From Planctomycetota bacterium (GTDB lineage: Bacteria > Planctomycetota > Planctomycetia > Planctomycetales > Planctomycetaceae), in assembly GCA_027618475.1 (NCBI GenBank), contig JAQCEJ010000006.1, forward strand, positions 11,353 through 75,352: 64,000 nt of DNA. Reading direction: 5' to 3'. Of the stretch, positions 43,908-50,999 are shown piece after piece. A model generated the notes under the pieces. That model ran no database searches. It saw only the letters and a list, made by a program, of their open reading frames with translations, and was not told where the DNA came from. A program made the translations under genes and the position numbers. The stretch's first letter is position 1. Each line of letters begins with the position of its first letter.

Positions 43908-44768
43908 CTATCCTTCATCCTTCGTAATATCTCTGACCGAAACTTCAATCGCACGGCAGATCCCTTCCAGATCGAGATCGTCGTCATCGTGACCAAACGG
44001 TTCTTCGACCGACTCGGCGATGATCTCGAAACCGATCATGAAGTACGCCAGAATCGTCGTCAGAGGGATCGTCCAGTAATCGAACTCGTGCACCAGCCCC
44101 CACGGCAACGACAACAGGTACAGCATAATGCACAGCCGGACGAAGGTGCGATACGATGGCGAGATCGGCGTGTTGACGATTCGCTCGCAGCCACCGCAGA
44201 CATTCATCAGCGCGTGGGCATCGGTATCGAGAACGATCATTGTTTCGCCGTCGATCAGTCCCTTTTGTTTCCACATCTGCAATTGTTCGTAGATTTCCAA
44301 CGACGTGCGAAGGGGGACATGGGCCCCTTTGAAGGTCGAGAGCGTCCGCCGCGCATCCCCCATCACTCTTAAATGAATCAGCAGACCATTGGCAAAGCGA
44401 ATGATAAGCAGTCCGAATTCCTGCAAGGCATCGCGATCGGGCTGCACCAGCGTGCGTACTTTGACGATGAGATTGCGGCTGACGTTAACGAGTTGTCCCC
44501 AGAGTTGTCGTGCTTCCCACCACCGCGCATACGCTGCGTTCGTGCGAAAGACAAGCAACAAACCGACGATCGTACTCAAGGCCGTATGCACGTCGGAGGG
44601 GATATCGAGGACGTCGCGATATCGGCTGTGTTCCTTCAAAACGGGGAGCAGGCTGTAAACCCCGATCATGACGGCCAGTTCCCACACTTTGGCCAGCGTC
44701 GATGTTGAAGAGATCATCGCCAAAAGTTTTCGCCAGCGCGTCACACTGCGATCCTTAATTCGAATCAT
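43908..44768 (-). CDS. Bestrophin-family (UPF0187/YneE-like) ion channel
   Basis: LLVFRTNAAYARWWEARQLWGQLVNVSRNL and the C-terminal FGHDDDDLDLEGICR are typical of bacterial bestrophin homologues. Confidence 0.8.
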   Translation of the reverse strand: MIRIKDRSVTRWRKLLAMISSTSTLAKVWELAVMIGVYSLLPVLKEHSRYRDVLDIPSDVHTALSTIVGLLLVFRTNAAYARWWEARQLWGQLVNVSRNLIVKVRTLVQPDRDALQEFGLLIIRFANGLLIHLRVMGDARRTLSTFKGAHVPLRTSLEIYEQLQMWKQKGLIDGETMIVLDTDAHALMNVCGGCERIVNTPISPSYRTFVRLCIMLYLLSLPWGLVHEFDYWTIPLTTILAYFMIGFEIIAESVEEPFGHDDDDLDLEGICRAIEVSVRDITKDEG

Positions 44769-45732
44769 CGGATGAGGGAGAACGCGTCGATTCCAGCAAT
44801 CGATCGGCTCCCTGTTCGCGCAACTGTTCAGCGAGTCGGCGGCCTAATTCTTCGGCGGCCTTTTCTCGATCGCCGTTGATCGGTGCCGATGCCGAGATTC
44901 GCTCGCGGCCATCGAGACTTAACACCACGGCGTCGAGGTGCTGTCCGTCTTTTTCGAAATGACTCCAACATCCGACCGGAGCATGACATCCCGCTTCCAG
45001 TTCGTTGAGCAATTGACGTTCGGCGAGTACGGAGTGAAACGTCGGCCCATCGGTGATTGTCCGCAGCAGATCGCGAAGCGACTGATCATCCTCACGGCAT
45101 TCAATCCCGACGGCTCCTTGTCCGACGGCGGGATAAACCATCGGCGGCTGCAGTTCCACGCGCGGCCATTTCGCAAACCCCAGACGATGCAAACCGGCTG
45201 CGGCCAGCACGAGGACATCATATTCGCCGGCATCGAGTTTTTTGAGTCGCGTATCGACATTTCCCCGAATCGGCAGAACATCGAGATCAGGACGATGAAA
45301 CAACAGTTGGGCTTTGCGTCGCAAACTCCCCGTGCCGACGCGGGCTCTTTTTTGAAGGGAGTCTAAGGCCAACGTTGTCACATCGCCCGTCGACGGGAAG
45401 ACCAGACAATCGAACATCGGCCCGCGAACGGGAACGCCGGCGAGTACCAGCCCCGGCGTGGTAATGGTCGGTAAATCCTTCAAACTATGCACAGCAATGT
45501 CGGCACGTCCGTCGAGCAGTGCCAGCTGCACTTCCCGTGTAAAGACGCCGACATTGCCGAGCTGATGCAGGGGCTGCGTCTGTTGCTGATCTCCCGTTGT
45601 CGAGATGTGTACGATCTCGATCGGCCGCATGGTGACCGACTTGAGCAGATCGCTGACGTAATGAGCCTGCCACAGCGCCAATTGGCTGGCACGTGTTCCG
45701 ATGCGAATCGGTTGTTCGTCCGTCGTCATCAC
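44755..45732 (-). CDS. hemC: Hydroxymethylbilane synthase (porphobilinogen deaminase)
   Basis: IRIGTRASQLALWQA, HSLKDLP, GSLRRKAQL, RGNVDTRL and the C-terminal cofactor-Cys context EAGCHAPVG. It overlaps the downstream bestrophin gene by 14 nt. Confidence 0.95.
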   Translation of the reverse strand: MMTTDEQPIRIGTRASQLALWQAHYVSDLLKSVTMRPIEIVHISTTGDQQQTQPLHQLGNVGVFTREVQLALLDGRADIAVHSLKDLPTITTPGLVLAGVPVRGPMFDCLVFPSTGDVTTLALDSLQKRARVGTGSLRRKAQLLFHRPDLDVLPIRGNVDTRLKKLDAGEYDVLVLAAAGLHRLGFAKWPRVELQPPMVYPAVGQGAVGIECREDDQSLRDLLRTITDGPTFHSVLAERQLLNELEAGCHAPVGCWSHFEKDGQHLDAVVLSLDGRERISASAPINGDREKAAEELGRRLAEQLREQGADRLLESTRSPSSDDSN

Positions 45733-45826
45733 GTCTGCTCGCTTCCAAGAATTCGTTGATTATCGACCTGAGACCTCTATAGTACAGCCTCCGAAAGTCG
45801 TGGTCGAGGGTCTGAGAATATCAGGC

Positions 45827-45981
45827 CAGGGCGATCGGGTTTAACACAATGGGTCGGGTGGCGGGGGCGCACCGCGCAGCGGAAGCCCCCGGATCGACAG
45901 CGGTTCCAGAACGGGGGCTTCCAACGGTGCGCCCCCGCCACCCTGAGTGGATGGGATATTGTGAAAAAGGCGATCGCCCTG
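45827..45981. mobile_element. MITE-like foldback element: 11-bp perfect terminal inverted repeats, 10-bp flanking direct duplication, no coding capacity
   Basis: TIRs cagggcgatcg (45827-45837) and cgatcgccctg (45971-45981). Identical aatatcaggc flanks both ends (45817-45826 and 45982-45991). Internal nested perfect stems are 19 bp (45856-45874 with 45925-45943) and 10 bp (45881-45890 with 45913-45922). Confidence 0.7.
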
Positions 45982-46160
45982 AATATCAGGCTCGACGGAG
46001 AAGCTCGCGATTGACGAAACCGTGCATTACCAGTCGATTTCGGCCCGAGCCGCTGGGTACCGCTTACGTTTCGCGGCTGACCGTTAGTTTTCGTATGGTC
46101 CCCTTTCGGCTATTCTATGAGATTGAATAACCTCTCACATTCATAAACAGGACTCTCATC

Positions 46161-47270
46161 ATGCTCTTCGTTCCCGCCGAACTTCAAAAACTAGCCGCTG
46201 ATATTTTCACCGCTGCCGGGTGCTCGGTAGAGGAATCCGAAAGCATTGCCGCTCATCTTGTCGAAGCGAACCTGATGGGGCACGATTCGCACGGGGTGAT
46301 TCGCATTCCGAGTTACATCCAATGGATGAGCGACGGAAAAGTGCTGCCGAATCAAAAGGTAACGACCGTTTTTGAGAATGATGTCATTTCAATTCTCGAT
46401 GGCGAATTCGGCTTCGGACAGAGCATCGGCAAGCAGGCGATGCAGATCGGTATCAACAAGGCATCAACCCATGGCATTGCTGTTGTCGGTTTGCGAAATG
46501 TCGGCCATCTCGGTCGCATCGGCGCGTGGGCTGATATGGCGGTTGCAGCGAACAAAGTCTCGCTGCACTTCGTCAATACATCGGGAGCGGGTTTGCTCGT
46601 CGCCCCGTTCGGTGGTATCGAACGCCGACTCTCGGCGAATCCGTTCGCGGCGGGGATTCCGATTCCCGGACGCGACCCCGTCGTACTCGACATGTCGGCG
46701 TGTACGATTGCCGAGGGAAAGATCCGCGTCGCTCTCAATAAGGGAGTGCAGGTTCCCGAGGGGAGTATAATTGATTCAAAAGGTCTCCCGACGACCGATC
46801 CGCGAGTGTTTTACGCCAATCCGCCGGGAGCGATTCTTCCCATCGCCGGTCATAAGGGTTTCGGCCTCGGAATGATCATCGAATTCTTCGCCGGTGCGCT
46901 GACGGCGGGTTCGTGTACCAATCCCGCGAATTCGCAGCGCCTCGCCAATGGGATGTTGACGATTCTGCTCGATTACAACGTTTTTCTCTCGGCCGATGCC
47001 TTCGCCGAAGAGGTCCGCCGTTACGTCGAGTTTGTGAAGAGTTCGGCGACCGCCCCCGGCGTCAAGGAAATCCTGATGCCCGGCGAGATCGAACGCAAAA
47101 CCCGAACACAAAGAACCGAACAAGGCATCGACCTCGACGACACCACGTGGAGCCAGATTCATGGCGTGGCGAAGGCGCTGAACGTATCGCACAAATTCGC
47201 CGAGCCCAAAGGTGGCGGTGTAGCATCGCAAGCCGGGTTGAATATCCCGGCGGTGGGGGAGAAGACGTAA
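46161..47270 (+). CDS. Ldh_2-family oxidoreductase (malate/L-lactate/ureidoglycolate dehydrogenase type 2 family)
   Basis: GHDSHGVIRIPSY, NVGHLGRIG and HKGFGLGM are typical of the Ldh_2 family. Confidence 0.85.
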   Translation: MLFVPAELQKLAADIFTAAGCSVEESESIAAHLVEANLMGHDSHGVIRIPSYIQWMSDGKVLPNQKVTTVFENDVISILDGEFGFGQSIGKQAMQIGINKASTHGIAVVGLRNVGHLGRIGAWADMAVAANKVSLHFVNTSGAGLLVAPFGGIERRLSANPFAAGIPIPGRDPVVLDMSACTIAEGKIRVALNKGVQVPEGSIIDSKGLPTTDPRVFYANPPGAILPIAGHKGFGLGMIIEFFAGALTAGSCTNPANSQRLANGMLTILLDYNVFLSADAFAEEVRRYVEFVKSSATAPGVKEILMPGEIERKTRTQRTEQGIDLDDTTWSQIHGVAKALNVSHKFAEPKGGGVASQAGLNIPAVGEKT

Positions 47271-50682: not shown

Positions 50683-50999
50683 CTGTTCGTCGTTTCCAGA
50701 ACGAGTTTTTCATACAAGCAGTTTCATAACCCTCTGGACAGCGGAGTTCCCTTTGTAATTTGAACGATAATTCCATCGCCAACCGGGTTATGAAACCAGT
50801 TCTAGCAGTCACACAGACATTCCTGGCTGTGTTCCGAGGAAAATCCTCTCGTGAGGCCGACGCCAATCATAACACATCCTGCCCCTGCATCCCCAGTGAA
50901 GGCCCGCGATTTCTACCATTCCGCATTGAAAATCTATATCTGCCACGTGTACGGTAATGAAAACGACTCTCTCCAGTTGCCAAACATCAGGAGTCTCAC

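Follow-up and report, generated by a model that had tools for sequence, protein, structure and literature searches.

A 155-bp foldback element upstream of a planctomycete hemC gene: a probable MITE with ISAs1-type ends, a REP-doublet core and promoter-proximal targets

Results

A 155-bp inverted-repeat element lies between hemC and an Ldh_2-family gene

The window analyzed here is a 64,000-nt stretch of contig C111 of a planctomycete genome (the source genome, G000; 5.93 Mb in 218 contigs, 54.5% G+C, with contigs below 2.6 kb missing from the assembly), and positions given without a contig refer to it. Among public sequences, its hemC is most closely related to those of uncultured Planctomycetaceae MAGs. 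hemC and an Ldh_2-family gene are divergent neighbors, as the first-pass annotation of this DNA had named them and as Pfam matches for both bear out, and the spacer between them is occupied by the following features.

44755 to 45732, minus strand: hemC, porphobilinogen deaminase (PF01379, PF03900); start 95 nt from the MITE
45817 to 45826, no strand: target-site duplication, left copy, 10 bp, AATATCAGGC
45827 to 45981, plus strand: the MITE, 155 bp, L end at 45827 and R end at 45981, core in the minority (flipped) orientation
45827 to 45855, plus strand: L terminal region CAGGGCGATCGGGTTTAACACAATGGGTC, with the ISAs1-type CAGGGC terminus and a subterminal CACAAT motif
45856 to 45892, plus strand: REP unit A, with a GGGTGGC head (GTGG tag) and its own hairpin GGGGGC..CCGC-GCA-GCGG..GCCCCC
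45912 to 45943, minus strand: REP unit B, a shorter inverted copy that forms 19-bp and 11-bp stems with unit A
45944 to 45981, minus strand: R terminal region, reading inward CAGGGCGATCGCCTTTTTCACAATATCCCATCCACTCA; 9 of 18 R-type termini are identical over 41 nt
45982 to 45991, no strand: target-site duplication, right copy, 10 bp, AATATCAGGC
46161 to 47270, plus strand: Ldh_2-family gene, malate/L-lactate dehydrogenase-like (PF02615); start 180 nt from the MITE

Both ends of the element read CAGGGCGATCG. The terminal inverted repeats (TIRs) are perfect over 11 nt (cagggcgatcg at 45827–45837, cgatcgccctg at 45971–45981) and extend imperfectly to 24 nt at 83% complementarity. These repeats, together with the flanking direct repeat aatatcaggc at 45817–45826 and 45982–45991, lie exactly where the first-pass annotation had placed them; the direct repeat is 10 nt long, or 11 nt if an overlapping G is counted. 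The 19-bp perfect stem described earlier pairs 45856–45874 with 45925–45943, and the nested perfect stem is likewise present (45881–45891 with 45912–45922) but measures 11 bp instead of 10. Folded as single-stranded DNA, the element reaches −62.1 kcal/mol, compared with −33.8 ± 3.4 kcal/mol for shuffled sequences (z = −8.3). A 93-aa open reading frame that crosses it (45849–46130) had been dismissed as an artefact, rightly so, given that it has no Pfam match and spans a multi-copy repeat.

The element is one of about 20 copies and transposes

A BLAST search of the element against its own genome returned many partial copies, the majority of them ending at contig ends. A search for the 11-mer with one mismatch gave 381 matches, mostly spurious, and termini were instead counted by BLAST with the element ends as queries (32 nt of L, 41 nt of R), which yielded 20 L-type and 18 R-type termini, or about 20 copies. 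About 20 further loci have these termini and stems and likewise a flanking duplication, which places the features of the hemC spacer far beyond chance. At contig ends, an L and an R terminus were paired when the 8–10 nt outside one matched the 8–10 nt outside the other. Eleven pairs share such a flank, against 0.32 expected from shuffled flanks; the duplication is 10 nt in seven of them, 9 nt in three, and 8 nt in one, and its sequence differs from copy to copy.

The flanks of these pairs were joined in silico with one target copy and compared with two same-genus genomes. For four pairs, the flanks are collinear on single contigs of one of these genomes, G001, and the joined flanks of pairs C45/C33 and C26/C56 match that genome continuously over the junction, where a single target copy stands and the element is missing. 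G001 contains no copy of it at all. The paired duplications, the empty sites, and this absence establish that the family transposes with a 9–10-bp staggered cut. Its expansion in this lineage postdates the divergence from G001.

The first-pass annotation had proposed a MITE-type insertion, to be checked by looking for siblings elsewhere in the genome and an empty site in related strains. The siblings exist (some 20 L and 18 R termini), and the multi-copy termini, copy-specific duplications, and empty sites for two insertions uphold the MITE reading. The empty sites belong to other insertions; the hemC spacer itself lacks an orthologous one because the upstream neighbor of hemC differs among the source genome, G001, and G002, the second same-genus genome. 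The spacer (45733–46160) coincides with a synteny break point, hemC and the Ldh_2-family gene being adjacent only in the source genome, and the sequence upstream of hemC in G001 maps to contig C4 of the source genome, that in G002 to contig C24.

These data bear on a simpler explanation, that of a locus-specific host element (an operator, attenuator, terminator, or small RNA) serving the hemC/Ldh_2 region, to which a very stable hairpin in a divergent promoter region would be well suited. We consider it most improbable. Some 20 copies beside unrelated genes, together with their duplications, contradict it, the element is missing from same-genus G001, and hemC and Ldh_2 are not neighbors in two same-genus genomes. 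Nor does the element belong to an Rfam family, the best matches being to generic miRNA-hairpin models, whose gathering score of 150 they miss by far at 28 bits. An intrinsic terminator was rejected in particular, as no T-run follows the stem and a terminator scan leaves it unflagged.

Insertions tend to spare genes: 26% of junctions fall within open runs of at least 100 codons, compared with 74% of random positions. Copies with TIRs and duplications also occur in G002, G025, and G026, and G002 has a miniature of 73 nt, bounded by these TIRs and flanked by the duplication CGGAGTAGTG. A second miniature, of 66 nt, lies on contig C111 of the source genome (C111:10337–10402), about 950 bp before the start of the window; it consists of L and R termini joined within a stem arm, is flanked by an 8-nt duplication, GGCCAATT, and has a TATACT motif 42 nt from its R end. 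The window also contains a dispersed repeat with the core GGGTTATGAAAC (consensus ..TCcGtCGtCcAgcGGGTTATGAAACcagTTcTAg) at 50731 (minus strand) and 50786 (plus strand). This repeat occurs 237 times in the genome (about 2 expected), is abundant in G001 too, and is present in the flanks of several MITE insertions.

The core of the hemC-spacer copy is flipped

Among L ends that run far enough inward, the "short" unit comes next in ten and the "long" unit in one; among such R ends, the "long" unit comes next in five and the "short" unit in one. The single exception in either class is the hemC-spacer copy. An older copy on contig C133 has its core in the same orientation, which implies that the core has flipped between its 19-bp inverted repeats. 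The hemC-spacer copy also carries a private TTGG variant, and these two peculiarities probably explain why it was assembled while most copies broke the assembly; about 35 contig breaks are due to this MITE family.

A second repeat, which runs into three MITE copies, was considered as a parent insertion sequence (IS) and rejected, as it proved to be an unrelated IS4-family element with TIRs CAGTATWGTTCGGC. Its representative at C212:57785–59236 (locus L005 of the source genome) is 1.45 kb long, matches NF033592, and has at least nine copies, which sit at the center of GC-rich palindromes, between ...GAGCGGCGGGGTTTATCC on one side and GGATAAACCCCGCCGCTC... on the other. In the MITE copies on contigs C97, C17, and C33, it occupies the same point, after a look-alike stem arm, GGTGGCGGGGGCGCACC, and all three of these copies have a promoter motif on their R side. 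The arrangement may reflect either palindrome-specific targeting or a MITE::IS composite moved as a unit.

The ends resemble those of ISAs1-family elements

Inverted repeats of the ISAs1 family begin with CAGGG and span 14–22 bp (PMC11946415), and the family generates direct repeats of 10 bp (PMC11946415; PMC6305408, Table 3, ISArsp11). The MITE ends begin with CAGGGC and form an imperfect inverted repeat of up to 24 nt, and the paired copies have direct repeats of the corresponding length (about 10 bp, 8–10). The spread of duplication lengths has a counterpart in a relative, G060: of ten copies of a single ISAs1 element, seven have 10-bp and three have 9-bp duplications. The closest match to the termini is an ISAs1 element of 1,262 bp in same-genus G001, whose TIR, CAGGGCAATCGAGCG, agrees with the MITE terminus in 10 of the 11 terminal bases; the likeness ends there. 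One MITE copy has a terminus that reads CAGGGCAATCG.

The only ISAs1 transposase in the source genome is encoded on contig C166 (PF13808 and PF01609, NF033564). It was rejected as a partner, as the TIRs of its element, CAGGGCCAGCGC, have only CAGGGC in common with those of the MITE. A terminus pattern search of 60 relatives returned only 156-bp pairs in G026, and the reversed control gave no matches. No parent IS with the full MITE termini was found in these 60 relatives or in the source genome, in whose assembly a collapsed multi-copy IS of 1.3 kb would be invisible because contigs below 2.6 kb are missing; among 185,579 species (one genome each) and a metagenome collection, the same search gave only chance matches. 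The autonomous IS with identical ends that the first-pass annotation had suggested looking for did not turn up, and the G001 element comes nearest to it. On the strength of the terminal sequence and the duplications, we infer ISAs1-type ends, an assignment that is well supported.

The interior is a doublet of REP units

The part of the element that recurs in relatives is the core (element positions ~27–118), not the termini: between genera, the interior is conserved at about 85% and the termini at about 69%. The core consists of two inverted units of about 35 nt, each with a GGGTGGC head and a GC-rich hairpin of its own (GGGTGGCGGGGGCGC...GCCCCCGG). In genome G016, two such inverted units bracket a 193-aa open reading frame for a REP-associated tyrosine transposase, or RAYT (PF01797; NF047646 at 89 bits against a cutoff of 80), and in G053, which belongs to a different family, a RAYT ortholog with 68% identity is bracketed likewise, by the only two units detected in that genome. 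A RAYT gene bracketed by inverted units is the REPtron arrangement, which defines REPs. The GTGG tag is a described variant of the GTAG tag, reported in a PVC member (PMC3733652).

Units and doublets occur in several states. Solo units are found in G006, G016, and G053; bare doublets without CAGGGC ends in G022, G029, G031, and some copies of G025; and doublets enclosed by CAGGGC TIRs and 10-bp duplications in G026 (156 bp), G025, G002, and the source genome. The 13 doublets compared, drawn from six genera, have almost invariant stems and a loop that varies freely, and one stem pair shows a compensatory switch between A-U and U-A (seven versus six sequences). At C203:51150–51247, the source genome also holds a bare core, 82% identical, with 9 nt of R-subterminal sequence and no CAGGGC termini; it may be either a decayed copy or a pre-MITE doublet.

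The source genome itself yields 14 Y1_Tnp matches, none of which (0 of 14) has a MITE-type unit beside it, and the assignment of the units to REPs therefore rests on other genera. Its closest RAYT, at C33:9018–9569 (locus L065), is 53% identical to that of G016 and is flanked by a second REP type, GGGTGGCTGGGGCGCC...GGCCCCAGTCTT. This second type and the 14 matches imply that several REP/RAYT systems coexist in this genome.

Could the whole element then be an ordinary REPIN or BIME, moved by a RAYT (a HUH/Y1 transposase), with the "TIRs" being simply the outer part of a long hairpin? In favor of such a reading are the REP-doublet core, a unit of which also stands beside RAYT genes in G016 and G053, the Y1_Tnp matches of the source genome, and published descriptions of TIR-flanked repeats of tyrosine transposases (PMC3733652). 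Against it, the copies carry 9–10-bp duplications of differing sequence, the bare doublets without CAGGGC ends in other genera mark the ends as a separable module, and in the source genome neither the unit nor the termini lie beside any Y1 gene. Duplications of 9–10 bp are not known from Y1/HUH transposition (IS200/IS605). We regard this explanation as very unlikely. Since the copies in the source genome have TIRs and target duplications, we class only the core, and not the element, as a REPIN. Judged by its sequence, the element is best described as a composite of ISAs1-type ends and a REP cargo.

Many insertions lie at a fixed distance upstream of a predicted promoter

The L end of the element faces hemC, and between the two lie the hexamers of a predicted promoter.

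45802 to 45807, minus strand: predicted −35 hexamer TCGACC, a consensus match; starts 19 nt from the L end
45779 to 45784, minus strand: predicted −10 hexamer TACTAT, after a 17-nt spacer; begins 42 nt away from the L end and precedes the hemC GTG by about 47 nt

These positions would put the transcription start about 40 nt upstream of the GTG. On the Ldh_2 side, no comparable promoter motif is found at the fixed offset. The −10-like sequence within 45756–45784 is nearly palindromic (ctatagta), and a predicted plus-strand promoter (TTGATT-16-TATAGT) that faces the MITE and Ldh_2 shares bases with the minus-strand TACTAT that faces hemC.

The flanks of all 38 termini were scanned outward from the element ends, with promoters taken as sigma-70-like consensus matches in what is an uncultured planctomycete. 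An outward promoter whose −35 hexamer starts 17–21 nt from the end is present at 10 of 38 termini, compared with 1.4% of 7,380 intergenic controls (P ~ 1e-10), and at seven of these ten termini the distance is exactly 19 nt. A simpler test, requiring a TAnnnT motif with at least four of six matches to TATAAT that starts 40–44 nt from the end, is positive at 13 of 38 termini against 3.0% of controls (P ~ 4e-11), and other offsets are not enriched. About two thirds of the termini have no promoter motif at the fixed offset. Of the 11 paired insertions, eight have the motif on exactly one side and none on both. A same-strand open reading frame of at least 100 aa starts 57–389 nt away from all 13 motif-bearing termini and from 16 of the 25 others (P = 0.016). 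The copies in G026 show the motif at 40–41 nt in two of three cases.

Is this preference a property of ISAs1 elements in general? Among 20 full-length ISAs1 copies from relatives, only three show the pattern. The promoter rule was not reproduced and so cannot serve as evidence for ISAs1; we rejected it as a general ISAs1 property and credit it to the MITE family instead.

The result also bears on the possibility that the MITE derives from another DDE family that makes 9–10-bp duplications, either the IS4 family or a Mutator-like lineage of the ISLre2/ISKra4/TnGBS type. TnGBS, ISLre2, and ISKra4 insert 15–17 bp upstream of the −35 hexamer of sigma-A promoters (PMC3942029), a documented fixed-distance rule of just this kind. 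Its absence from the 20 full-length ISAs1 copies and the empty-handed search for a cognate ISAs1 parent would fit such an origin, as would the IS4-family transposases present in the source genome. The offset of the MITE is 19 nt, not 15–17, a CAGGGC start is an ISAs1 hallmark (PMC11946415), and 10 of 11 terminal bases match a same-genus ISAs1 element. The TIRs of the resident IS4-family element are unrelated, and no ISLre2 or ISKra4 transposase exceeds its threshold in the source genome (NF033529 gives 25 bits at best against a cutoff of 200; NF033572 gives no match). We consider a different DDE parent unlikely, although less so than transposition by a RAYT or a host function of the hairpin.

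Discussion

Our analysis of the hemC/Ldh_2 spacer revealed a family of short inverted-repeat elements. We think it probable that the element is a non-autonomous DNA transposon, a MITE, with ISAs1-type ends, a REP-doublet cargo, and targets upstream of promoters, and we propose the following model for its mobility. An ISAs1-family DDE transposase supplied in trans would bind the CAGGGC... terminal inverted repeats, and insertion through a staggered cut of 9–10 bp generates the flanking duplications seen in the paired copies. The cargo carried along in this way consists of two inverted REP units, a REPIN-like doublet as recognized from relatives, whose units belong to a REP/RAYT system widespread in Planctomycetaceae. 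Targets are intergenic, and in at least a third of insertions one end lies, as the motif statistics suggest, about 19 nt upstream of a −35 hexamer and about 42 nt upstream of a −10 hexamer, with the targeted promoter presumably firing away from the element. At the hemC locus, the insertion sits directly upstream of the predicted core promoter, has left it intact, and has shifted the sequence farther upstream by 165 bp.

What might be the relevance of such an architecture? We speculate that an ISAs1-type MITE senses promoters and lands with its end about 19 nt short of the −35 hexamer, some 54 nt ahead of the transcription start, and in doing so ferries a REP doublet; this extended reading of the sequence patterns is tentative, and we put it somewhat short of even. 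If it is true, REP hairpins can spread in a genome without a tyrosine transposase of their own, and two independent mobile systems are coupled within 155 bp so as to seed REP hairpins directly upstream of promoters. Such a route would explain how "orphan" REP hairpins without a cognate RAYT multiply. The family also places a very stable hairpin immediately before the predicted core promoters of a dozen genes besides hemC and of hemC itself. Should the landing rule hold true, the "safe harbor" used by TnGBS and ISLre2 has been discovered a second time, by a transposase lineage unrelated to theirs, and promoter recognition by transposases becomes testable by comparison. MITEs, ISAs1 elements, and REPINs are all familiar in themselves. 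In the literature that we searched, we found no account of a REP doublet enclosed by ISAs1-type ends and kept across several genera, nor of such an element landing at a fixed distance upstream of promoters.

The MITE shares with ISAs1 insertion sequences (NF033564) the CAGGG(C) start of its TIRs and the 9–10-bp duplication. Unlike them, it has no transposase gene, measures 155 bp instead of about 1.3 kb, and has a REP-doublet interior that is not derived from an IS. In other respects, it conforms to bacterial MITEs such as Correia/NEMIS, RUP, ERIC, and Nezha (PMC3733652, PMC3184786), which are also small and non-coding, have TIRs and duplications, occur in multiple, intergenic copies, and fold into a long hairpin. 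Typical MITEs are internal-deletion derivatives of their own IS, whereas the interior here is a module of a REP/RAYT system.

That interior has the features common to REPs, REPINs, and their RAYTs (PMC3116915, PMC3337134, PMC2817692, PMC3733652), namely inverted units of about 35 nt with a 5′ tag and a GC-rich stem-loop. As in those systems, inverted units bracket a RAYT gene in two genomes, solo units and doublets are both present, and two inverted REPs form one long hairpin. Unlike REPINs, the doublet lies between DDE-type TIRs with 9–10-bp duplications, and the source genome has no unit-flanked RAYT. The Ssn/NTS hairpin repeats (PMC11893778) offer a further parallel, in that short oriented hairpins flank the gene of an enzyme that acts on them; we rejected an identity with NTS repeats, which are CGTC-tagged and stand beside GIY-YIG nuclease genes, whereas the unit described here is GTGG-tagged and stands beside a RAYT.

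With respect to target choice, the closest likeness is to TnGBS, ISLre2, and ISKra4. In both cases, a short and constant distance separates the end from the −35 hexamer downstream of it, the sigma-70-type promoter fires away from the element, and genes are spared. The MITE differs from these elements in its unrelated ends and in an offset of about 19 nt instead of 15–17; its promoter may lie on either side and is found at only about one third of the termini.
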